Both the position numbers and the translations under genes were made by a program. This document shows, piece after piece, positions 4,967 through 47,470 of a DNA stretch of 48,435 nucleotides. Positions within the stretch are counted from its first letter, which is position 1. Every line of letters starts with the position of its first letter. The notes beneath the pieces were generated by a model. That model had not been told where the DNA came from. It did not search any database and saw only the letters and a program-made list of their open reading frames with translations. Source of the stretch: Escherichia phage EcoIv28_Lewi; sequence record OX461087; one strand, 5' to 3'.

Positions 4967-5110
4967 ATGGTAATGGTCAAATTCAAAGAAAACGGACGCT
5001 GCGGAGTGTTCAACCTTGAGCAAATCAAAATCCGTCCGTGCGGAAAGGTGGTTGCGCCATTTGGTCTGGTGCAGATGCGTGAATGCGAGATTGTGGAGTA
5101 TATCAAATGA
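4967..5110 (+). CDS. small hypothetical protein (47 aa)
   Basis: ATG with GAGTGAGG RBS; stop overlaps next ATG (ATGA); below track size cutoff. Confidence 0.35.
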   Translation: MVMVKFKENGRCGVFNLEQIKIRPCGKVVAPFGLVQMRECEIVEYIK

Positions 5111-5403
5111 CTGACAATAATAATCAGTATTCAGAGCGAGATATAGTGGAACTTGATGAATCTGGTGGCTTTTATTCCCAGCATGTTAGCGCCATGACTT
5201 CTGAATCACTGCATTCTAAATCATCTATTGCTGCTGAGTTAGCATATCGCGACATGCTTATTAACGAGTTAGTTATTGCCATACAACAAGTAATTGAATG
5301 CTACGATTCTGTGGATGGTAAAGTCTGGACAACATCAAGCAAGCGTCGCGCTCTGGATAATGCACGTGCGGCGGTTAATAAGGCGTTAGGGGAAACAAAA
5401 TGA
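5107..5403 (+). CDS. hypothetical protein (98 aa)
   Basis: Track ORF 5083..5403 trimmed to ATG coupled to the upstream small ORF. Confidence 0.5.
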   Translation: MTDNNNQYSERDIVELDESGGFYSQHVSAMTSESLHSKSSIAAELAYRDMLINELVIAIQQVIECYDSVDGKVWTTSSKRRALDNARAAVNKALGETK

Positions 5404-6002
5404 AACTTATCGACCTGTTAGTTCAAGAATTGCCTAAGCGTGGTGGTTGGCCTGATGGTGCGGAATACTGTCATCTAACACAATATGATCGCCACTGCTT
5501 AACTATTGTTTTTTCCCACAGACAAGTTGGCACAGGAAATAATTCAATAACATCAAAGGAAGAAATGGTTTTTTCTGGTATTGGTTTCCTTGGCGATACA
5601 TTGTATGGGTGCATAGTTACAGCTAAAGAATACGAATCAGCGTTATCGGCTTTGCAAAGGCCAGCATGGAACGGCGAAGGCCTACCGCCAGTTGGGTGTG
5701 AGTGTGAGTGCCATGTTGATGAGGGTGTAATTCATTGCATTGTTGTTGGTTATGATTTTGATGGAAAGGCCGTTGTAATGCGCAACGTTCCTGCCCGCAA
5801 ATACTTCTCCATTCAGGCTAACTCAGGGCGCATAAAGCCACTACGCACTGAAGCGGAAAGGAAGCGAGATGCTGCGGCTGAGGCTATTGATTGGTATATG
5901 CCTGAATTTATCCCTGACACACCAAATGATTATTATCACGCAAAGAAAATTTACGACGCCATCGCAGCAGGCAAGATTCCCGGCGTGAAACTGGAGGGTT
6001 AA
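5400..6002 (+). CDS. hypothetical protein (200 aa)
   Basis: Track ORF, ATGA overlap with upstream gene. Confidence 0.55.
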   Translation: MKLIDLLVQELPKRGGWPDGAEYCHLTQYDRHCLTIVFSHRQVGTGNNSITSKEEMVFSGIGFLGDTLYGCIVTAKEYESALSALQRPAWNGEGLPPVGCECECHVDEGVIHCIVVGYDFDGKAVVMRNVPARKYFSIQANSGRIKPLRTEAERKRDAAAEAIDWYMPEFIPDTPNDYYHAKKIYDAIAAGKIPGVKLEG

Positions 6003-17079: not shown

Positions 17080-18633
17080 ATGATTACAGCTCAAGATATA
17101 TTCAACGAAGCAAGGGAGTTAAAAGTATCTCCGGCTCGCGTTGCCTTCCATCATGGCATGATACCAAGCTCAAATATGTGGCTTGACATCAAGGAAGGCA
17201 AGGAGCGTGATGTAACGTACTCAGAAACAGAACTCACCAGTGAGCACCGGACTGATTTGCTGTCTCGTTATGCAATCGCTGCAGCTCGTGCCGTTCAGTT
17301 CCCAATAAATACATCGTTCATGCATTTACTTGGGTGCGTTGCCAGCGCAATGACGAGAAACTTTAGCGTTGAGTATTACCATTCAGAACTTCCAGTTTCT
17401 CTTTACGTGGTTACTTCTCAGCCTCCATCAGCAGGGAAAACCGCCATCAACTCAATGCACATGAATCCGGTGAAGATTGAATATGACAACCTTTCCAAAA
17501 AGATGGAAAAGCAGATCATAAAAATAAATCTTCGCATTGAAGAGTTGATGAAGGCATACAAAGAGGCAAGCAACCAAAATGCAAAGGCACTAATCGGCGA
17601 TGATATTGCTCGCGAAAAAGAGAAGTTGGAGGAGCTTTATACAATTACATATCCACTGACGGACGCAACGCCGGAGGCTGTTCAGCATCAAGCCATTCAT
17701 GAAGGTGGATTTTTTAATCTGATAAGTGACGAGGCAAGCGTTCTTAACACATGTCTTGGCCTCTCTTACGGAAAGGAAGGTGGAAAGGCAAACGCAGAAG
17801 TCATCCTGAAGGGATGGGATGGAGGATTCATTGGTTCTGCTCGTGTTGGTCGTGGCGTTTCATCTGGTTACGTGCTTGGAAATATAAGTGTGATTGCTCA
17901 GGATGAAAGTATTGATGCCATTCTTGCCGCTGGCGACAGGGGTAACGGTCTTTCTGAACGTTTCCTGATGTTGCGAGAGCAATCAATGCTTGGCTATCGC
18001 GAACACTGGGACATGGTTAATGACTGCCCTGTAAGCAAGCCAATGCCAGACAGCTTGAGGTCGGAATATGCAAGATTTATACATAATGTTGTGTCAGCAG
18101 AAAAAACAAAACTGACGCTTCACAATGACTCAGCAAGAATGATCGGCCTGTTACGAAATCAGTGGGAGAAAAACTTCCTTCCCGGTGGTAAGTGGGACCA
18201 CGTTCTTCTTCGTGGCGCGATGGGTAAAGCTGATAAGCAAATAATCCGTCTGGCAGCAATATTTCACGCTGCTGAAAACTGGTGCGATGGAGGAAGGCGT
18301 TCAAAGATTATCGGTGAAAATGAAATTAGTCGCGCCATCAGTGTTTATGATGCACTGACAAAAACGTTCACTGATGCTGTTGAATCAAATGGATATGCTG
18401 GTGAGCGTTCTGAATTTGATGTTGTTGCAGAAAAGCTACGCTCTGCCGCTCAGAAAGGGAAAAATAGCGTAACGGTGAAGTGGCTTTATGATTCACTTAA
18501 AAACGTACGACCATTCAAAGGGATACCTAAAATTTACGACCGACTCAGGTCAAGTGTATTACCATCTCTGGAGGAGGATGGTTACTGCGTATTTATCGGA
18601 AATACTGTTCACATAAATCCGAGGTTGAAATGA
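17080..18633 (+). CDS. P-loop NTPase, putative replication protein
   Basis: 517 aa, Walker A-like PPSAGKT; first large gene of the replication block. Confidence 0.5.
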   Translation: MITAQDIFNEARELKVSPARVAFHHGMIPSSNMWLDIKEGKERDVTYSETELTSEHRTDLLSRYAIAAARAVQFPINTSFMHLLGCVASAMTRNFSVEYYHSELPVSLYVVTSQPPSAGKTAINSMHMNPVKIEYDNLSKKMEKQIIKINLRIEELMKAYKEASNQNAKALIGDDIAREKEKLEELYTITYPLTDATPEAVQHQAIHEGGFFNLISDEASVLNTCLGLSYGKEGGKANAEVILKGWDGGFIGSARVGRGVSSGYVLGNISVIAQDESIDAILAAGDRGNGLSERFLMLREQSMLGYREHWDMVNDCPVSKPMPDSLRSEYARFIHNVVSAEKTKLTLHNDSARMIGLLRNQWEKNFLPGGKWDHVLLRGAMGKADKQIIRLAAIFHAAENWCDGGRRSKIIGENEISRAISVYDALTKTFTDAVESNGYAGERSEFDVVAEKLRSAAQKGKNSVTVKWLYDSLKNVRPFKGIPKIYDRLRSSVLPSLEEDGYCVFIGNTVHINPRLK

Positions 18634-19246: not shown

Positions 19247-19278
19247 AAAAACCCTCCAGATGGAGGGTTTCTTTTATC
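19247..19278. terminator. bidirectional rho-independent terminator
   Basis: Hairpin AAACCCTCC-AGAT-GGAGGGTTT plus T-run. Confidence 0.6.
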
Positions 19279-20227
19279 TGCTAACTGACATTTTCTCTAT
19301 CAACTCGCCAGCATCATAAATCTTTCTTCTGATTCTCTTCGCCATCCTGATTGTGTCCGCATCATCAGGCAGCATCACCGTAAGCCCTGCGTTTTCCGCA
19401 GCGCAAAGTTCGTCAAATTTATAATTAACTATGCAGCGTAACCGTGCTTTCGTCTCATCACTAACAGAACGCACCACTTCCCACATGTTTTCCGGCGACC
19501 AGCAGCACCAGACATGTGCGCCAGTGAAGTAATGGCATTTCCACGCATCGGCATAATCGGACACCAGATAAATGAACTTCCCGTTATCTTCTCCGATTGG
19601 GCTTATCGCGCCACGAGTGAGTTTTCCGTTGATGGCTGAGTCCTTGTTGTATCCTGCGCGGAAAAAAGTTCTGAATGAATCATCATCCATGCCAATGAAT
19701 GCCACGTTGCACGGCTTCATTGTGTCAGCGCGCATCATCTCAACCGCAATAAGCTCTCCAGATTTCCCTCTGACGACGTTAACGTCGCAACCAATACCAT
19801 TTATCAATGTCCACTCATTCATCGCGACACGCGTCGTTTTATCCATGATTGCGGCGACTTCCTGCTCGGTGATGAAGTCGTCGTTATAATTTATCTTCGG
19901 TAACTCCTTCCTGATTGCCTCCAGCTTTTCGCGTGGATGCATATTCAGGAATCCTCCCAGAGCCTCCAGTGCTTCTGGAAAGCTCATGCCAGAGAGTTTC
20001 ATCAGCCAGTTCATGCCGCTACCGGAACCGCACTGATTGCAGATTGCACCGCCATCGCCTTTTGTTTCGAAGTTGTCATCAAAGCGATACCTGTCTTTTC
20101 CTGAGCATGATGGGCATGGCTGGTGCTTGCCATTGAAAACTCTGCTATCCACATTGACGATGGACATGATGGCAGCCTGCCAGTTTCTGAGCATTTTTTG
20201 CTCGATTTCCTTCCAGTCGTATCTCAT
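19274..20227 (-). CDS. DNA primase (zinc-ribbon plus TOPRIM-like)
   Basis: Motif HQPCPSCSGKDRYRF...CNQCG typical of the primase zinc ribbon; start trimmed to ATG with AGGAAG RBS. Confidence 0.7.
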   Translation of the reverse strand: MRYDWKEIEQKMLRNWQAAIMSIVNVDSRVFNGKHQPCPSCSGKDRYRFDDNFETKGDGGAICNQCGSGSGMNWLMKLSGMSFPEALEALGGFLNMHPREKLEAIRKELPKINYNDDFITEQEVAAIMDKTTRVAMNEWTLINGIGCDVNVVRGKSGELIAVEMMRADTMKPCNVAFIGMDDDSFRTFFRAGYNKDSAINGKLTRGAISPIGEDNGKFIYLVSDYADAWKCHYFTGAHVWCCWSPENMWEVVRSVSDETKARLRCIVNYKFDELCAAENAGLTVMLPDDADTIRMAKRIRRKIYDAGELIEKMSVSR

Positions 20228-20239
20228 AAAATCTTCCTG

Positions 20240-20287
20240 TTGACGATGGTGTAGATTCATTGTAATTTACTCGCATGAAACAATCAA
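20240..20287. promoter_or_regulatory. divergent promoters (primase, minus; HNH/helicase block, plus)
   Basis: Plus: TTGACG...TGTAGATT...TAATTT; minus: TTGATT-N17-TACAAT. Confidence 0.45.
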
Positions 20288-20299
20288 TCGTTACTCGCA

Positions 20300-20947
20300 A
20301 TGAAACAATTAATCGTTACAATAGAGGGTAAGAAATGGCTATCACCATCAAGAAGTGCGAGGTTTGCGGAAATGAGTTTATCGGAACTGCAAAAGCAAAA
20401 TGTTGCTCAGGAAAGTGCAGGGTTAAAAAATGCAGGAACCAAAAGAAAGTCACACATTTCACAGGAGAGGTTAAGGGAGGTTCTTGATTACAACCCTGAT
20501 ACTGGTTATTTCACTTGGATTGTCAGGCTTGGAGCAAGGACTCAGATAGGTGGAAAGCCAGGTACTGTTGATGCTGGTGGTTACCTTAAAATAGCGGTTG
20601 ACGGAAAGGCTTTTATGGCGCATCGCCTTGCTTGGATTTACTTTTATGGAGGAGATATATCAAATTCAGAAATTGACCATATTAACGGCAACAGGATGGA
20701 TAACAGGATATCTAACCTTAGGTTAGCTAACAGAAGTGAAAACAATTGGAACCAAAAGATAAAAAATAGCAACAACTCAGGGGTCAAGGGTGTTAGTTGG
20801 GATAAGGGAGCCAAAAAATGGAGAGCTCAATGTATGGTTAATGGAGTGAAGTATTTCATTGGGAGATTCAATAATATTTCAGATGCAGAGCAGGCTGTGG
20901 TTTCTTTTTGTAGAAAATTCCATGGTAAATTCGTAAACAACGGGTGA
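20300..20947 (+). CDS. HNH-AP2 homing endonuclease (start uncertain; possible frameshift with upstream zinc ribbon)
   Basis: Motif EIDHINGNRMDNRISNLR plus AP2-like C-terminus; conserved LDYNPDTG begins ~57 codons into the track ORF. Confidence 0.65.
   Translation: MKQLIVTIEGKKWLSPSRSARFAEMSLSELQKQNVAQESAGLKNAGTKRKSHISQERLREVLDYNPDTGYFTWIVRLGARTQIGGKPGTVDAGGYLKIAVDGKAFMAHRLAWIYFYGGDISNSEIDHINGNRMDNRISNLRLANRSENNWNQKIKNSNNSGVKGVSWDKGAKKWRAQCMVNGVKYFIGRFNNISDAEQAVVSFCRKFHGKFVNNG
20335..20487 (+). CDS. small zinc-ribbon ORF (~50 aa) out of frame with the downstream HNH domain
   Basis: ATG after GAGGG RBS; CEVCGN...CCSGKC pattern; ends where the conserved HNH N-terminus begins in another frame. 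Confidence 0.35.
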   Translation: MAITIKKCEVCGNEFIGTAKAKCCSGKCRVKKCRNQKKVTHFTGEVKGGS

Positions 20948-20951
20948 TGAA

Positions 20952-22886
20952 ATGCACAAAATAGACAAAATGATTTCAGAGATTGACATTGAGAAGTTAA
21001 AGAAATCAATAAAATTAGGTTCAATAGAGCCATATGATTACCAATGGCTTGTTTACGCAAAGTGCGCTGAGGTTATTCGTAATTTTGGCAAGAAACCTGA
21101 ACCAAGCTATGTTACAGCGTCGGTTTCATCAGGGAAGACGGTGATGATTTCAATGCTTTGCAGTAGATTTCAGGATATGGGGTGGGATGGTCTTGTGATT
21201 TCAAGGCAGGGGGAAATAGCCGAGCAGAATGCTGAAATGATGTGGGAGTGCGGTGTAAAAAACTCTCTTTATAGTGCATCTCTTGGCAGGAAAAGCACAG
21301 CATATCCTATTATATGCGGCACTGAAGGAACAATCGTGAACGCACTTTTTGATAAAAAAGATGAATCAAATGGTGACGTTAAGAAAGGTGGGTTGAGTGA
21401 TTTTACCCCAAGATTTTGCCTTTGCGATGAAGGGCACCAAGTACCGTGGCAGGACATTGTCGGTGGTGAACCAACAACACAGTATGGCGTTATACTTACC
21501 GAGTTAAATCGGCGCTGTAAGGCAAAGTATGGACATGACATGATAACTATCGGATTCACTGGAAGCCCTTTCCGTGGCACCGAGTCAATGAAAGGTGCGT
21601 ATTGGAAGAATGAAATAATAAACATTGACACAAAGTACATGGTAGATCGCGGATTTGTTGTTCCAACAATCTTTGGACTTCATGATGTTGATGATTTGCA
21701 ATACGACCTTTCATCATTTCATGGCTCTGATATTGACGGGACGCAGGATTTCACTGCTGAACAACTTAAGCAGATGCAGGAAGAAATACTTGAACAAGGC
21801 ACTCTCACACAGAAAATCATGCTTAAAGTGATGGAGCTTACAAAAGATAGAAATGGAGTGTTAATTACCTGTGCAGGCAAGAAGCATTGTTTAGAAGCTG
21901 CTAAATATCTGCCAGAAGGAAGCTACGCCATTGTCACTGAAGATATGGGGCAAAAAGCAAGACGTAAGGCACTAAAGGATGCATACACTGGAAAAATAAA
22001 ATACACATTCCAGATCGCCGCGCTTACGACAGGAGTCAACATTCCGCTTTGGGATACAAGCGTGATATTACGAAAAATAATGTCGCTCACCCTTCTTGTT
22101 CAGTTGCTTGGTCGCGGTATGCGACTGCTGAAGAAAGAGCAAATTGATGCCGGGTATCATAAAGAAGACCATCTGGTTCTTGATTTCTCAGGCACGATGT
22201 TTGAGCTTGGTCAGTTGTATGAAGACCCAATTCTGGAAGAGGCCGAAGCGCAACGCTCAAAACGCAGTGGAGAACAGGTTCCGTGCCCGAAATGCGGAAC
22301 GATGAACAGCCCATATGCGCGTCGCTGCATTGGCAAAGATGCGCTATCGCCAGATGGTCGTTGCGAAGAGTTTTTCAGTTATATCCGCTGTGGATTTGAT
22401 AAGCACGGTATCCGCATTTTTGATGATGGTTGCGGAACTAAAAACGACCCTACGGCGCGCTATTGCCGACATTGCGATCATGTTTTGCGCGACCCTAATG
22501 CGGCTCTTAATGAACGTGCCTATACGGATAACGAATGGGCTGATGTTATGGATTTCAAGGTTCAGTTAACGAAGGACGGAGAAGGTATTTTGTATCGCTA
22601 CTGGATTAATCGTTGTGATGGCAAAGAGGGCTGGGCTAACGAGGTTTTCTACCCTTACGGCGGAGCAACCCACATGAAAAACATGTTCAAGGCAAAGGCC
22701 ATCTTCCCTCACCTTGATGATAAATCAATAGCTGGGAAAATCCTGAAATGCCAGAACGCCAAGCAGTTCATGATGTATGCGGGGTTGATTAAAGCGCCAA
22801 AACGCATCACACATCGTATTAACGATAAAGGCCGTGACATAATACACAGAAAAGATTTTGCAGGTGAGCAAAGTGAAGCAGCTTGA
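20952..22886 (+). CDS. SF2 (DEAH-type) helicase with C-terminal zinc ribbon
   Basis: Walker A SSGKT, motif II DEGHQ, C-terminal CPKCG...CRHCDH. Confidence 0.85.
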   Translation: MHKIDKMISEIDIEKLKKSIKLGSIEPYDYQWLVYAKCAEVIRNFGKKPEPSYVTASVSSGKTVMISMLCSRFQDMGWDGLVISRQGEIAEQNAEMMWECGVKNSLYSASLGRKSTAYPIICGTEGTIVNALFDKKDESNGDVKKGGLSDFTPRFCLCDEGHQVPWQDIVGGEPTTQYGVILTELNRRCKAKYGHDMITIGFTGSPFRGTESMKGAYWKNEIINIDTKYMVDRGFVVPTIFGLHDVDDLQYDLSSFHGSDIDGTQDFTAEQLKQMQEEILEQGTLTQKIMLKVMELTKDRNGVLITCAGKKHCLEAAKYLPEGSYAIVTEDMGQKARRKALKDAYTGKIKYTFQIAALTTGVNIPLWDTSVILRKIMSLTLLVQLLGRGMRLLKKEQIDAGYHKEDHLVLDFSGTMFELGQLYEDPILEEAEAQRSKRSGEQVPCPKCGTMNSPYARRCIGKDALSPDGRCEEFFSYIRCGFDKHGIRIFDDGCGTKNDPTARYCRHCDHVLRDPNAALNERAYTDNEWADVMDFKVQLTKDGEGILYRYWINRCDGKEGWANEVFYPYGGATHMKNMFKAKAIFPHLDDKSIAGKILKCQNAKQFMMYAGLIKAPKRITHRINDKGRDIIHRKDFAGEQSEAA

Positions 22887-38686: not shown

Positions 38687-38763
38687 GGACGCGTAGCTTA
38701 ATTGGTTAAAGCAACCGACTCATAATCGGCTGATTGAAGGTTCAAATCCGTCCGTGTCCACCA
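38687..38763 (+). tRNA. tRNA, anticodon CAT (Met, or Ile if lysidine-modified)
   Basis: Hand-folded cloverleaf: acceptor GGACGCG/CGTGTCC, anticodon loop CTCATAA, T-loop TTCAAAT, encoded 3' CCA. Confidence 0.8.
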
Positions 38764-41195: not shown

Positions 41196-41224
41196 TTGAC
41201 GTAGATTGATGGCGTGTTTATAGT
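41196..41224 (+). promoter_or_regulatory. sigma70-like promoter TTGACG-N17-TATAGT for the accessory island
   Basis: Consensus hexamers; TAGATT motif inside the spacer. Confidence 0.5.
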
Positions 41225-41264
41225 AATGACGTAGAAACAACAATAAATGTTAGAGGTGAGTGAT

Positions 41265-41603
41265 ATGAAAGATGAGTTCAAAGGTACAAAAGGTCCGTGG
41301 CAGGTTTTACCAGAAGAGGTTGATAAGCCATACATCCGAATCAGAGGCACAATTCCTGGTCACAGATACAAGGTGGCAAACGTATTAACTCCTGTTTATG
41401 AAAATGTTCATGCCAGAGAGGCTAATGAAACACGCGCAAACGCAAAGTTAATAGTTGCAGCGCCAGAATTACTCGAAGCACTTCGCCAGCTTCGCGATTA
41501 CGTTGAGGATGTTTGCGCAGTATCGCCTGATGATTGCCATGAAGACCATCCATTAAATCTGGCAAACAAAGCAATCAAGAAAGCATTAGGGAAGAAACAA
41601 TGA
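41265..41603 (+). CDS. hypothetical protein (112 aa), first gene of accessory island
   Basis: Track ORF 41247..41603 trimmed to ATG after GAGGTGAG RBS. Confidence 0.5.
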   Translation: MKDEFKGTKGPWQVLPEEVDKPYIRIRGTIPGHRYKVANVLTPVYENVHAREANETRANAKLIVAAPELLEALRQLRDYVEDVCAVSPDDCHEDHPLNLANKAIKKALGKKQ

Positions 41604-42409
41604 AAACACTAAGCAAAATCTATTCAGACAAAGAAACGCGAAACGGCATCGCTGTTAACAAAACCTATCTCGTGCCAGTGGAGCAAATCTATCTGGAGCC
41701 GGGCTACAACATCCGCGAAGCCGATGAGCAACACGTTGAATATTTCGCGCAGTGCTGGGAATCAGGGCAGCCGTTACCAGCATTAACAGTTATTCCAGAC
41801 GAGAAGGGAATCCGCATTCTTGATGGTCAGCATCGCTACCTCGGCGCACTGCGTGCCATTGAGCGTGGCGCACCAATCGTTCGTATTGAGTGCAAGGACT
41901 TTACTGGAGATGAGGCGGATAAAATCGCCTTCATGGTGTCATCCAGTCAGGGTAAGCAGCTCGACCCATTTGAACGAGCAAAGGCTTATACGCGACTGAA
42001 AGGCTTTGGCTGGACGAATGAAGAAATCGCCAAGAAGGTAGGTCGCTCAGTATCTGACGTGCAAATGCACCTGTCGCTGGGTGATGTGCCAGTGGAAGTA
42101 AAAGCGCGCATCAGTGCGGGACAAATAAGCTATGCAAATGCCGTAGCAGTAACGCGTGAGCATGGTGACGATGCGGTTAAAGTTATCGACGAGGCCGTGG
42201 AAGAGGCGAAGGTGCGAGGCAAGGATAAAGTTACAGCGAAGGTACTAAAGTCGAAAAAGATTAAGCCAGTAGACCGTCTGATTGAGTTATTGAAGCCAGC
42301 AGACCACGTGATTCTTCCTGCCGGTCATGTGGTGGCAGAAGATGAGGAATTTATTCAGATTCCTGTTACTGATATTCACGAGGTTATGGCAATTCTGGAG
42401 AAGATGTGA
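41600..42409 (+). CDS. ParB-like protein (ParB/Srx N-terminal domain plus HTH)
   Basis: Motifs YNIRE and ILDGQHRYLGALRA; HTH-like WTNEEIAKKVGRSVSDV. Confidence 0.75.
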   Translation: MKTLSKIYSDKETRNGIAVNKTYLVPVEQIYLEPGYNIREADEQHVEYFAQCWESGQPLPALTVIPDEKGIRILDGQHRYLGALRAIERGAPIVRIECKDFTGDEADKIAFMVSSSQGKQLDPFERAKAYTRLKGFGWTNEEIAKKVGRSVSDVQMHLSLGDVPVEVKARISAGQISYANAVAVTREHGDDAVKVIDEAVEEAKVRGKDKVTAKVLKSKKIKPVDRLIELLKPADHVILPAGHVVAEDEEFIQIPVTDIHEVMAILEKM

Positions 42410-42600
42410 TGAGTAAGTATGAAGAGTTGGACTTGAAGATATTGCACATGCTTTCCGTTAAACCAACTCTTGTTTTTGATATATGGCTTAAGTTTCGTGA
42501 TGATGTTAGAAACATTACGGTTATTGACAGGAGGATGCAGGCACTGAAAAAGAAAGGTTTTGTTTATAACGTTCGCGGATGTGGTTGGGTTAAGCTATGA
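42406..42600 (+). CDS. hypothetical protein (64 aa)
   Basis: Track ORF, ATGA-coupled. Confidence 0.4.
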   Translation: MMSKYEELDLKILHMLSVKPTLVFDIWLKFRDDVRNITVIDRRMQALKKKGFVYNVRGCGWVKL

Positions 42601-42770
42601 CACCAGAACAATTCATCGAAAAACAACTTCGCATCAAGCTGCCTGACATCGACCAGATGGCAATTGATGCGGCTATTCAGTATTACAAGCGCAATCAGAG
42701 CGCAAAGAAGGGTGGCATTTTTGAAGAATGCCTGAAGGTTGCAAAACAACATATGATTAAGGTGAAGTGA
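42597..42770 (+). CDS. small hypothetical protein (57 aa)
   Basis: ATG..TGA ORF filling the gap, coupled at both ends. Confidence 0.35.
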   Translation: MTPEQFIEKQLRIKLPDIDQMAIDAAIQYYKRNQSAKKGGIFEECLKVAKQHMIKVK

Positions 42771-43306
42771 TGAAACTAAAAATAAGCAAACTATTACTTG
42801 AATCAGCATTAATCTTTCAGGCGCGCAATGATGTGCGTTACTACCTGAACGGCATCTGCTTCATGGCTGATGGTCGCGTAGCATCAACTGACGGGCATCG
42901 CGCATTTATTGGTGGCAGCCATGATAATAAGCTGACAGAAAATGTGATCATCAAGATTAGCAAGTCGCCAACAAAACGCTATGAGTACGCCATCATTGAT
43001 ACCAAGTCGAAAATTGCAACGTATCATGATGAAGCTGGCGCGATGGTTGGTGCTGGTATCTGCGAAGAGATTGATGGTCGATTCCCTGATATTGATCGCG
43101 TGATACCAAAGGAGACGAAAGCAGCAGAGGAAATTGGTTTCAATGCTGGCTATCTGGTTGATATTGAGAAAGTGGCGAAGCTGTTTAATCCTAAATTCTG
43201 TGGTGTTAAATTTGAGCTGAATGGAAATACAAATGCCGCAGTTTGCTGCCTTAGTGCGCCAACAGGCGAGACTGCGAAGATTGTTGTTATGCCTATGCGT
43301 CTGTAG
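42770..43306 (+). CDS. truncated DnaN-like protein (mini beta sliding clamp)
   Basis: Segments NDVRYYLNG, TDGHR, DGRFPD..RVIPK, EIGFN..Y and C-terminal VVMPMRL match E. coli DnaN domain II/III elements as recalled; only 178 aa versus 366. Confidence 0.6.
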   Translation: MKLKISKLLLESALIFQARNDVRYYLNGICFMADGRVASTDGHRAFIGGSHDNKLTENVIIKISKSPTKRYEYAIIDTKSKIATYHDEAGAMVGAGICEEIDGRFPDIDRVIPKETKAAEEIGFNAGYLVDIEKVAKLFNPKFCGVKFELNGNTNAAVCCLSAPTGETAKIVVMPMRL

Positions 43307-43410: not shown

Positions 43411-44223
43411 ATGAATCAAGTTATTAGCTTTTCAGGCGGTAGAACTTCAGCGTTTATGACGCTGGAGGTACTAAAGATACACCCAGAAGCCGAAATTATC
43501 TTTATGGATACTGGAGCTGAGCACCCAAAAACGTATGAGTTTGTTCGCAACTTCGCAAAGCACTTCAATATCGCTATAACATGTATTCGCGTGGTTCCAA
43601 ATATGCAAATGCGTAAGGCAAGTACGTATGAGCAGCTAACCGTCGATGAGATTGGTCCAGACCTTGAGCCGTGGCGGAGAATGTTGCGTAAGTATGGTCA
43701 TCCATACGTTGGTGGAGCATTCTGCACCGACAGAATGAAGACCGTGCCATTCACTAAATACTGTAATGAAAAATACGGGAAAGGAAACTACGAAAGATGG
43801 CTTGGCATCAGGTCCGATGAACCAAACCGGTTGAAGAACCGAGGTGACGGTTTTCATTACCTTGCAGACATTAGCGACTTTGAAAAGCAGGATATCCTTG
43901 ACTGGTGGTCAATGCAACCATTCGACCTTGGTATTCAGGAGCATCTTGGTAATTGCGTTTTCTGCATCAAGAAGAGCCTGCAGAAAGTTGCACTTGCTGC
44001 AAAGGATGAGCCGGAACTTGCTGCTGAGTTTTGGAAGATGATTCAGGATGAAGATAAAAAATCAGACAAGATAATGTATCGCTCAAACAGAAGTCTTGGC
44101 GACGTTATAGTTTTATTTAACGATGTAAGCAGGGATGAACTGGCATCACGAATGACGTCAATGCGCCAGTACGATACTGGTTCATGCAGCGAGAGTTGCG
44201 AAGCATTTTCTAATGAGAATTAA
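43411..44223 (+). CDS. PAPS-reductase-like PP-loop ATP pyrophosphatase
   Basis: PP-loop SFSGGRTS, CTDRMKTVPF motif, C-terminal Cys cluster. Confidence 0.75.
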   Translation: MNQVISFSGGRTSAFMTLEVLKIHPEAEIIFMDTGAEHPKTYEFVRNFAKHFNIAITCIRVVPNMQMRKASTYEQLTVDEIGPDLEPWRRMLRKYGHPYVGGAFCTDRMKTVPFTKYCNEKYGKGNYERWLGIRSDEPNRLKNRGDGFHYLADISDFEKQDILDWWSMQPFDLGIQEHLGNCVFCIKKSLQKVALAAKDEPELAAEFWKMIQDEDKKSDKIMYRSNRSLGDVIVLFNDVSRDELASRMTSMRQYDTGSCSESCEAFSNEN

Positions 44224-44226
44224 TGA

Positions 44227-44256
44227 CAAGCCCTCAATCGAGGGCTTTATTTATTC
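44227..44256. terminator. bidirectional rho-independent terminator
   Basis: Hairpin AAGCCCTC-AATC-GAGGGCTT plus T-run. Confidence 0.6.
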
Positions 44257-44472
44257 ATCTTCGCTACCTGCGTGACGACGGCGTTTTTGTTTGCTGTCAC
44301 CTTCTTTTGTATGCGTGGCAACCTCAAACGTCTTTGGCAGGTCAGGCATAATGCGCAGCTTTGGTAGCAGATGCTCGTCTGGTTCGGTAATCACCTCGCC
44401 AAGCTGCAATTCACGAATCTTGCCTTTCTCTTTAACAAAGATTCCGCGAGCGATGACTTCGTATTTAGCCAT
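44251..44472 (-). CDS. hypothetical protein (73 aa)
   Basis: Track ORF downstream of major capsid gene. Confidence 0.45.
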   Translation of the reverse strand: MAKYEVIARGIFVKEKGKIRELQLGEVITEPDEHLLPKLRIMPDLPKTFEVATHTKEGDSKQKRRRHAGSEDE

Positions 44473-44514
44473 TATTCACCTCAAATTCACAAAGGGGCTT
44501 TCGCCCCTTTTCTA

Positions 44515-45588
44515 TTACACCGGAGTTTGCGTGCCGTAGCCGTTGAATACTCTGGACTTGCCAGTGGCATCCTTGCGAATTTGCAGACCAAAAGCAGACC
44601 ACACGAGGAAATTGAAGTTATCGTGCGGGTTTGCGCGGGCTGCGGCGTAGGTGGAAACAGGTTGAGCAACGCGCGGACGGATGTACATGTCGTTGCGAAC
44701 GTAACCAACGAAATGGTTGCCGGTCAGCAGGAAGTTGGTGCCAATCTTGCCGATGCGACCATTGCCGAACTGCGTGATGTACTGCTCAACTGTGCCGCCT
44801 TTGAAGCCTGCCGCATCAGAATACGGGCGCATGAAGCTACGACGCACTGCCGGGGAAACCCACAGAGTCACCTGCTCAAATACGTTCTGCGCATCAAGAA
44901 TAGCCTGGAAATCCTGATTGAAGAATTTCACGATTTGGTCAGGCGTTGCGGTTTGCAGGTCGATATTCAGGCCGCCACCGGAAACGTTCAGGTTAACCTG
45001 AATAGTGTTCGGGTGGTTGGTGATACCGTAACCAGTGTAAACGCCGTTTACGTTAAGAGTCTGGTCGCCAGTCAGCAGGTACTGCGCCATATCGGAACGC
45101 AGGTTAAAGGTGACGTTAGCCTGATCGTCCAGCAGTGGGTCGAAGCCTTCAGACTGCATACCCAGCAGTTCGCGCCATTCGCGGCTGTAGCCAGTCTTGA
45201 AGATTGGAATCACATCGCCAGTGTAATCGTAGCGAGTTTTATCCAGATCTTCCGGCTCCTGACCAGACAGGGTGCGGACAACCTTGCCAGCATCGGAAGC
45301 AATGCGACTGATTGCCACAGTCTTACCGATATTGATGTTTGCCGCGATACCCATCAGGTCGGCCATCATGTCCTGACCAGCTTCGTTACGGAAAACGCGG
45401 GTGGTCACGTTATCCACGTCACGCCAGTAATCTTTCGTTACCAGTGCGGTGGCGTTAACACCATAGGTTTTCGCCAGTTCAGCTTCGGCATTGCAGAACA
45501 CCTTGCGGTCGATGGTGAGATGTTTCCACTGGTCAGCCACTACTGCGGAGTTGGCTACCAAGTCTTTGGTAAAAATAATCTTTTCCAT
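44515..45588 (-). CDS. major capsid protein (putative)
   Basis: 357 aa with GGAGC RBS; positional (after scaffold-like and decoration-like genes); the 407-aa plus-strand ORF is antisense. Confidence 0.65.
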   Translation of the reverse strand: MEKIIFTKDLVANSAVVADQWKHLTIDRKVFCNAEAELAKTYGVNATALVTKDYWRDVDNVTTRVFRNEAGQDMMADLMGIAANINIGKTVAISRIASDAGKVVRTLSGQEPEDLDKTRYDYTGDVIPIFKTGYSREWRELLGMQSEGFDPLLDDQANVTFNLRSDMAQYLLTGDQTLNVNGVYTGYGITNHPNTIQVNLNVSGGGLNIDLQTATPDQIVKFFNQDFQAILDAQNVFEQVTLWVSPAVRRSFMRPYSDAAGFKGGTVEQYITQFGNGRIGKIGTNFLLTGNHFVGYVRNDMYIRPRVAQPVSTYAAARANPHDNFNFLVWSAFGLQIRKDATGKSRVFNGYGTQTPV

Positions 45589-45590
45589 TA

Positions 45591-47470
<1,880 letters not shown>

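Follow-up and report, generated by a model that had tools for sequence, protein, structure and literature searches.

A family of half-size beta sliding clamp homologues with conserved cleft residues in phage replication modules

Introduction

The closest described relative of the gene that we study here is the beta sliding clamp of Escherichia coli, DnaN (P0A988; modelled by TIGR00663 and by Pfam PF00712, PF02767 and PF02768). The cleft of this clamp is formed between two paired strands, T172-L177 of domain II and the C-terminal strand 357-366. For RU7, a ligand of the cleft, the reported contact residues are V247, P242, R152, R246, M362 and T172 (PMC3335792). We report on a gene of Escherichia phage EcoIv28_Lewi (sequence record OX461087), located at positions 42,770 to 43,306 of a stretch of 48,435 nucleotides (nt) that we refer to as the window, and which is the whole stretch of DNA analysed. 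The 178-amino-acid (aa) product, which we name mini-beta, has the same domain II fold, the same cleft residues and the same VVMPMRL C-terminus as DnaN.

Many phages encode primases and helicases and no DNA polymerase, and must take over the host DNA polymerase III (Pol III) holoenzyme. A cell has few copies of Pol III, and the way in which phages compete for these is largely unexplained outside lambda and a few other models. The family of mini-beta keeps the clamp surface used by Pol III alpha and epsilon, by the clamp-loader subunit delta, by Hda and MutS, and by Pol II, Pol IV and Pol V. It is a widespread and conserved family found at the head of lambdoid replication operons, and is therefore a concrete candidate, open to experiment, for the step of replicase takeover. 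We estimate at about 0.45, a little short of even, the probability that mini-beta does not form a ring and serves as a receptor for clamp-binding motifs, through which proteins of the host replisome are engaged.

The homology to DnaN is in itself not new. Database labels for members of the family include "DNA polymerase III beta subunit", "DNA clamp protein" and "sliding clamp", and a clamp label has been repeated without comment for Klebsiella phage ZCKp20p (PMC9901506) and for the 209-aa gp20 of Burkholderia phage AH2 (PMC3483164). In our literature search we found automatic annotations only, with no functional work or experiment on the family. The same search found no recognition of a distinct 1.5-domain family or of the cleft as its conserved part, and nothing on its position heading lambdoid replication operons.

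Results

Homology to DnaN and predicted architecture

The gene and the part of it that encodes the C-terminal half-domain described below are located as follows.

42770..43306, + strand: mini-beta coding sequence, half-size beta-clamp homologue; ATG at 42770, 178 aa and stop
43118..43303, + strand: codons of the half-domain, residues 117-178, which starts with EIGFNAGY (DnaN 316-323) and ends with VVMPMRL (DnaN 360-366)

A phmmer search of the PDB sequences with mini-beta matches beta sliding clamps only. The best match is the Enterobacter cloacae clamp (E=5e-13), and the E. coli clamp is found at 2.5e-12. The main alignment pairs residues 7-154 of mini-beta with DnaN 136-289, and a second, overlapping path pairs residues 118-178 with DnaN 313-366. 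With a profile of 138 family members as the query, the E. coli clamp is found at E=3e-29, and the identity to DnaN across 144 structurally aligned residues is about 34%. The continuous match to DnaN ~130-250 comprises all of domain II, while domain I and about half of domain III are absent. The half-domain has two overlapping HMMER paths, one to DnaN 249-302 and the other to 313-366.

The curated full-length models reject mini-beta, as is to be expected for a sequence of half the length. The score under TIGR00663 is 35.5 bits, where the equivalog cut-off is 137.65 bits; PF02767 and PF02768 are found below their gathering thresholds, and PF00712, the N-terminal domain, has no match. Mini-beta is a DnaN homologue that falls outside DnaN proper, both by its domain count and by the curated cut-offs.

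Using the 138-sequence alignment, AlphaFold2 predicts the mini-beta monomer with a mean predicted local distance difference test (pLDDT) of 97 and a predicted template modelling score (pTM) of 0.91. The predicted secondary structure consists of three units of the beta-alpha-beta-beta-beta type.

Residues 2-48: unit 1, with a predicted helix at 7-16
Residues 59-101: unit 2, with a predicted 9-residue loop at 64-72 in place of the second helix of DnaN domain II
Residues 117-178: unit 3, with a predicted helix at 126-139

Units 1 and 2 correspond to domain II of DnaN, and unit 3 matches both halves of domain III. The start of unit 3 (EIGFN..Y) and its end (VVMPMRL) are like the second half of domain III, and its middle (NPKFCGVKFEL) is like SNEKFRGVRLYV of the first half; we infer the exact placement of its first strand. 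As modelled, mini-beta is clamp domain II plus one half-domain with the C-terminal strand of the clamp, that is, about 1.5 of the three domains. Its structural neighbours are sliding clamps throughout, and phage proteins of 178-250 aa in BFVD share the predicted fold with template modelling scores of 0.8-0.89.

The original prediction, made by eye from the DNA, had described this open reading frame (ORF) as a half-size DnaN homologue that is not a random dnaN fragment. The ORF is found at the place and with the 178-aa length given there, and the homology is borne out by phmmer, by the family profile and by the structural neighbours. The motifs that it quoted are all present and align in register with E. 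coli DnaN, and both the profile search against DnaN and the monomer structure prediction that it proposed recover the clamp, the first with a significant E-value and the second with the clamp fold. Its account of the missing parts needs correction: domain I and about half of domain III are indeed absent, whereas domain II, of which it took much to be missing, is essentially complete.

The region of the second helix of domain II varies in sequence within the family. Some members have helix-like sequences at this position, such as "RADVELLLKVQK" and "LDTIKKALSG". The clade to which mini-beta belongs has there a conserved loop of the SP(T/A)K type, and P67 is kept in 79% of the family. Judging from these sequences, the family may be split into forms with and without this helix.

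A constant length under purifying selection

A phmmer search over 1.84 billion cluster representatives finds 1,965 matches at E<=1e-3. Among the 150 top-ranking representatives (clusters at 50% identity), about 130 have lengths of 165-215 aa and align along the whole of their sequence, which is the pattern of a stable short family and not of a set of fragments. By tblastn, a homologue is present in 290 phage records, and the hosts of these phages include Salmonella, Escherichia, Vibrio, Klebsiella, Burkholderia, Proteus, Acinetobacter and Xanthomonas, amongst others. The orthologue in Escherichia phage ClaudiaMuster_Bas77 is 90% identical to mini-beta. Complete E. coli genomes have no match to a lambdoid-type homologue at megablast sensitivity. 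Compared to 36 orthologues of the same clade, mini-beta has a median ratio of nonsynonymous to synonymous substitution rates (dN/dS) of 0.09, with a median dS of about 0.39. Mini-beta is under purifying selection.

These results bear on the possibility of a dnaN fragment that is decaying or without function. A dN/dS of 0.09, a length that stays constant across more than 130 divergent clusters and a clamp fold predicted with high confidence all speak against it, and agree with the original prediction in this respect. A related proposal is the one that RefSeq makes by name, a Holliday-junction resolvase. PHROG 3007, named "RusA-like Holliday junction resolvase", matches mini-beta over its full length with a hidden Markov model E-value of 1.2e-63, and well over 100 RefSeq phage records use this name for the gene (for example NC_054649.1 gp73, NC_054636.1 and NC_054639.1). 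However, the Pfam matches at E<=1 are DnaN domains only, with no RusA family among them, and both the fold and the structural neighbours are those of the clamp. The RusA-like name looks like a misannotation propagated from PHROG 3007. Fragment or resolvase, we find either identity hardly credible.

Cleft residues and their conservation

Three segments upstream of the half-domain carry residues of the cleft.

42827..42853, + strand: codons of NDVRYYLNG (N20-G28; DnaN Q149-G157), spanning the 148-152 loop and the cleft residues R152, Y154 and L155
42887..42901, + strand: codons of TDGHR (T40-R44; DnaN T172-R176), edge strand of domain II and one wall of the cleft
43073..43111, + strand: conserved segment that includes P106, kept in 99% of the family by alignment, and the RU7 contacts P242, R246 and V247

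The segment DGRFPD..RVIPK aligns with DnaN 238-250 and EIGFNxxY with DnaN 316-323, and VVMPMRL is identical to DnaN 360-366. By sequence comparison, mini-beta is identical to DnaN at R152, Y154, L155, T172, G174, H175, P242, R246, V247, N320, Y323 and M362-L366. All six of the RU7 contact residues are retained as identical residues.

The same positions are highly conserved across the 138-member family alignment. In the first segment, D21 is kept in 92%, R23 in 98%, Y25 in 96% and L26 in 93% of the members; in the second, T40 is kept in 91%, G42 in 99% and H43 in 93%; and in the half-domain, M174 is kept in 96%, P175 in 92% and Y128 in 89%. In DnaN numbering, N320 is kept in 75% and Y323 in 89% of the family (both in subsite 2), and R365 in 85%. 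The columns kept in at least 90% are M1, D21, R23, Y25, L26, G28, T40, G42, H43, P106, M174 and P175. Leaving aside the initiator methionine, these correspond to E. coli D150, R152, Y154, L155, G157, T172, G174, H175, P242, M362 and P363. Since the strands T172-L177 and 357-366 pair in the E. coli clamp, the sector that mini-beta retains appears to be the part with the cleft in which clamp-binding motifs dock. The near-invariant columns and the six RU7 contacts agree with the earlier view that the retained stretches are those lining the cleft.

A conserved cleft would also suit a host-shutoff decoy or poison. As such, mini-beta would be a monomeric cleft module that titrates scarce delta and Pol III, or that caps an opened monomer of the host beta; the effect would be to stop replication of the host chromosome, or to block clamp-dependent repair and regulators (Hda, MutS, Pol II, Pol IV and Pol V). 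Delta binds monomeric beta far more tightly than the dimer, as in the 1JQJ and 1JQL complexes, and these two clamp complexes are among the PDB matches of mini-beta. Peptides and small molecules that block the cleft are known to stop replication (PMC6204406). Against a decoy, phages without a polymerase themselves need the host Pol III holoenzyme. We regard this explanation as unlikely, and the genomic contexts described next bear on it in both directions.

Genomic contexts of the family

We examined 80 loci from IMG/VR, in which we called and clustered the genes and annotated the recurrent neighbours. The locus search was seeded with a 36-sequence sub-alignment, and the loci that it returned are mostly from two clades. 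Two contexts dominate. In context A, a ParB-like gene lies upstream of mini-beta, as in the window. Context B is that of lambdoid temperate phages, and includes 27 loci that represent six sub-clades of the mini-beta protein.

The gene order in context B is cI (a helix-turn-helix domain with an S24 peptidase), cro, cII (PF05269), mini-beta, an O-like initiator (phrog_345) and a helicase or P gene. The last of these is either a DnaB-like helicase (PF00772 and PF03796) or lambda P (PF06992). Example loci of the lambdoid type are IMG/VR L030, L031, L048, L050, L068 and L083. We present the case of Hafnia phage yong1 (NC_073022.1; locus L093), a cultured phage with context B and a published annotation, in which mini-beta is at 4995-5531. 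The order in yong1 is rexB-rexA-cI, then cro, cII, gp27, Phage_rep_org_N, "DNA replication protein", the nin genes and Q, where gp27 is the 178-aa homologue, annotated as "DNA polymerase III subunit beta". In these phages, mini-beta is an unremarked extra gene that heads a replication operon of the lambda type.

Other contexts are more diverse. In Vibrio phage R20L (L004), mini-beta adjoins genes for a Dam methylase and SSB. In Escherichia phage C130_2 (L005), it is found between methyltransferase genes, near a primase and a helicase. The homologue in Xanthomonas phage PhiXhv-1 lies between genes for a helicase and Pol I. Finally, in Shewanella phage 1/41, Salmonella phage SE1 and Proteus phage Isfahan, mini-beta is an isolated gene amid the structural genes and is encoded on the other strand.

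The association with replication modules is strong. The association with the absence of a polymerase is frequent and not absolute: a strict rule by which the gene would occur only in phages without a polymerase is contradicted by PhiXhv-1, with its homologue beside Pol I. For the decoy, the stand-alone cases count in favour, as they show several unrelated phages with a single unit transcribed against the structural genes, in a position like that of a moron. The lambdoid cases count against it, as the gene is there inside the replication operon and not among host-takeover genes.

We also note that in three unrelated contexts, R20L, C130_2 and the metagenomic contig L010, at most one gene separates mini-beta from an orphan DNA methyltransferase, of the Dam type or of the C5 type. 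A coupling to methyltransferases in general is not supported, as this adjacency is absent from the two dominant contexts. These early genes may be neighbours by chance, or their proximity may hint that replication and methylation are linked.

Predicted assembly, charge and DNA contact

The genuine sliding-clamp alternative is that four mini-beta subunits of 1.5 domains each form a D2-symmetric ring of six domains, to serve as a phage-specific processivity factor for host polymerases. Such a ring would have twelve beta-alpha-beta-beta-beta units, with two half-domains pairing across a two-fold axis. Four times 1.5 domains gives six, the number in every known clamp. The clamp domains reportedly have an internal pseudo-two-fold symmetry, in the structure of Kong et al. 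of 1992, and the pairing of half-domains is therefore geometrically conceivable. The location of the gene in replication modules is also as a ring would have it.

We modelled with AlphaFold2 a construct consisting of the Pol IV peptide QMERQLVLGL, a 30-residue Gly/Ser linker and four copies of mini-beta joined by linkers, using a concatenated alignment of 13 rows. The result has a pTM of 0.44, with pLDDT of 72-89 for the individual copies, and the mean pLDDT of the five models ranges from 56 to 73, under a shallow alignment. In favour of a ring, this pTM is above the ~0.2 that four unassociated copies would give, and strand 121-125 is regular in the four-copy model, where the monomer model has isolated bridges only. 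However, a pTM of 0.44 is far below that of a confident prediction, the five models scatter, and the monomer is predicted at pLDDT 97 without any partner. In this clade, a helix that would line the DNA channel is predicted to be missing, and the edge strand 92-101 is not conserved in the family. To our knowledge, no clamp has subunits with a non-integer number of domains. The four-copy model argues against a confident ring, and we consider a ring of this kind quite improbable.

Mini-beta is more basic than DnaN. Its isoelectric point (pI) is 8.2, and the family median is 8.3, versus 5.25 for E. coli DnaN. Conserved Lys or Arg residues are found at positions 11, 19, 134, 137 and 142, which, by homology to the E. 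coli clamp, are presumably on the helices and the 148-152 loop that face the DNA. These positions hint at direct contact with DNA.

This would be expected of a loader-independent, non-ring tether comparable to herpesvirus UL42, in which the basic concave face sits on DNA and a polymerase, be it that of the host or a phage Pol I, is held by its clamp-binding motif, so that the polymerase is made processive without a clamp loader. The pI agrees with a tether, and so do the conserved Lys and Arg residues at equivalents of DNA-channel-facing positions, for example K/R19 (E. coli H148, in the 148-152 loop) and K134 (E. coli N329), and the PhiXhv-1 homologue between helicase and Pol I genes. On the other hand, the net charge is only about +2, compared to -2 for the equivalent region of E. 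coli DnaN, and the channel-facing assignment comes from homology to the E. coli clamp, not from coordinates. We take a tether that acts in this way to be quite unlikely.

The tether and the ring can be put together in a broader proposal, that mini-beta is a new replication accessory factor made from a quarter of a clamp. It would be either a loader-independent, non-encircling tether that hands motif-held host polymerases to the phage replisome, or a D2-symmetric ring of four copies, which would be the first clamp of 1.5-domain subunits. We hold this broader proposal to be doubtful. If either form were true, the binding cleft would be a portable module, and the family would show how polymerase-less phages, including lambdoid ones, capture the host replicase.

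The operon in the phage genome

In the window, mini-beta is the fifth gene of an operon that runs opposite to the flanking head and tail genes.

41196..41224, + strand: candidate sigma-70-like promoter TTGACG-17-TATAGT before the mini-beta operon, from a consensus scan (10/12 matches)
41247..42770, + strand: upstream operon genes, namely a 118-aa ORF (phrog_1273), the ParB-like gene, a 64-aa ORF (phrog_7185) and a 57-aa ORF (phrog_4439)
41600-42409, + strand: ParB-like gene, upstream of mini-beta in the same operon
42759..42764, + strand: Shine-Dalgarno-like AAGGTG, 5 nt ahead of the mini-beta ATG, as read from the sequence
43411..44223, + strand: PAPS-reductase-like gene directly 3' of mini-beta (phrog_33262 at 9e-103)
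44228..44247, + strand: terminator-like hairpin with a T tract, from a consensus scan; candidate end of the transcription unit

The promoter-like matches in the operon region are fewer than in shuffled controls, and the candidate at 41196..41224 is to be read as a pattern match. The ATG of mini-beta overlaps the TGA of the preceding 57-codon ORF (GTGATGA), which is the usual signature of translational coupling and suggests that the translation of mini-beta is coupled to that of the upstream ORF. Phages Skate and swi2 share this upstream gene order, as do 44 IMG/VR loci. The PAPS-reductase-like gene is not found at the position adjacent to mini-beta in swi2 or Skate, and in Skate there is a terminator at that position. 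The ParB-like and PAPS-reductase-like genes around mini-beta recall pairs of the IbrA/IbrB type, which are suspected of acting on DNA.

The phage is a siphovirus of the Skatevirus/Swiduovirus type, with about 91% nucleotide identity to swi2, Sf11 and Skate. Its replication genes, and other features of the window, are the following.

17080-18633: helicase
19274-20260, - strand: primase
20300-20947, + strand: HNH endonuclease (phrog_99 at 2e-68), flanked by the genes for primase and second helicase; swi2 has the same arrangement
20952-22886: second helicase
38687-38763, + strand: single tRNA-Met gene, anticodon CAT
44371-45594, + strand: 407-codon ORF, antisense to the major capsid gene
44515-45588, - strand: major capsid gene (phrog_771 at 2e-133)

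The phage also encodes a RecE-like exonuclease and an Erf-like annealing protein. The 48,435-nt stretch includes no DNA polymerase; its other ORFs of at least 340 aa are all structural, and the annotated relative swi2 is likewise without one. The gene content of the window and of swi2 thus supports the earlier remark that this phage has a primase and a helicase yet no DNA polymerase. The HNH gene probably encodes a homing endonuclease and would be an insertion into the replication module, and the 407-codon ORF is almost certainly a spurious shadow ORF. Of the relatives, swi2 has a tRNA-Met gene and Skate a tRNA-Ile gene in a comparable region.

Discussion

The reading that we prefer for mini-beta is that of a stand-alone receptor. 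Domain II and the half-domain would make up roughly a quarter of the clamp ring, and this sector would carry the hydrophobic cleft for clamp-binding motifs. Having lost domain I and half of domain III, mini-beta would be unable to form the canonical head-to-tail dimer, and it would not encircle DNA as a canonical ring does. Its likely targets would be the alpha and epsilon subunits of Pol III, the "wrench" subunit delta of the clamp loader, or further clients of the clamp. As the phage is without its own polymerase, mini-beta would engage these host proteins during phage DNA replication, at the phage's own replication complex, and act as an adaptor or tether. A weak direct contact with DNA through its more basic concave face may help. 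The binding of clamp-binding motifs is predicted, and with it we infer the host targets and either recruitment, as an adaptor, or sequestration, as a decoy.

Several observations weigh against a non-ring receptor that engages the host replisome. In DnaN as a whole, too, no residues are better conserved than those of the cleft, some of them for structural reasons, and because of this their conservation is necessary and insufficient as a proof of binding. The tethered Pol IV peptide in the four-copy construct is undocked, at pLDDT 25, which also counts against a decoy. Given the shallow alignment of 13 rows, the artificial tether and the lack of a control, this failed docking is weak evidence, and not a refutation of binding. 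The pTM of the same construct exceeds that expected of four independent copies, and some self-association is therefore possible. The homologue beside the phage Pol I in PhiXhv-1 implies that the role may not concern the host Pol III. Simple sequestration of Pol III or of the clamp loader would harm a phage that depends on them. Finally, amongst the phage's own proteins and the conserved neighbours in the 80 loci, we find no conserved phage partner with a clamp-binding motif.

In that search, the sole recurrent match to the motif is the hexapeptide QMHLSL, which fits QxxLxL, at residue 155 of the ParB-like protein; of 44 ParB-like neighbours, 43 have it. This hexapeptide is unlikely to be a clamp-binding motif, as it sits in the predicted recognition helix of the helix-turn-helix of the ParB-like protein, where ParB proteins have xHLxLL.

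Whatever its role, the family offers a natural minimal cleft module of about 20 kDa that could serve clamp-targeted antibacterial work.

Comparison with known systems

In comparison to DnaN, mini-beta has half the length (178 versus ~366 aa), lacks domain I and half of domain III, and is basic rather than acidic. The AlphaFold2 model is also without the second helix of domain II, and the four-copy construct gave no confident ring.

Full-length phage beta clamps (PHROG 947, "DNA polymerase processivity factor"; for example Burkholderia phage KL1 gp28, with 386 aa) are, like mini-beta, phage-borne homologues of DnaN located in replication modules. Mini-beta matches phrog_947 at 2e-10 over positions 146-287 of 368. 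These clamps have three domains and usually occur together with a phage polymerase (PMC3483164), whereas mini-beta belongs to a separate short family of 1.5 domains.

The herpesvirus processivity factors UL42, a monomer, and UL44, an open dimer, have two full domains and no detectable sequence similarity to mini-beta. Their DNA binding by a basic face has been demonstrated by experiment, while for mini-beta the pI and the conserved Lys and Arg residues hint at such binding.

Staphylococcus phage Twort Gp168 is an example of phage proteins that act on the host clamp as outside binders, a strategy directed at the clamp system that mini-beta may share. The Gp168-clamp complex (7evp) is among the matches of mini-beta solely through its clamp chain. 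Gp168 is not a clamp homologue and binds the host clamp, whereas mini-beta would imitate the binding site of the clamp itself.

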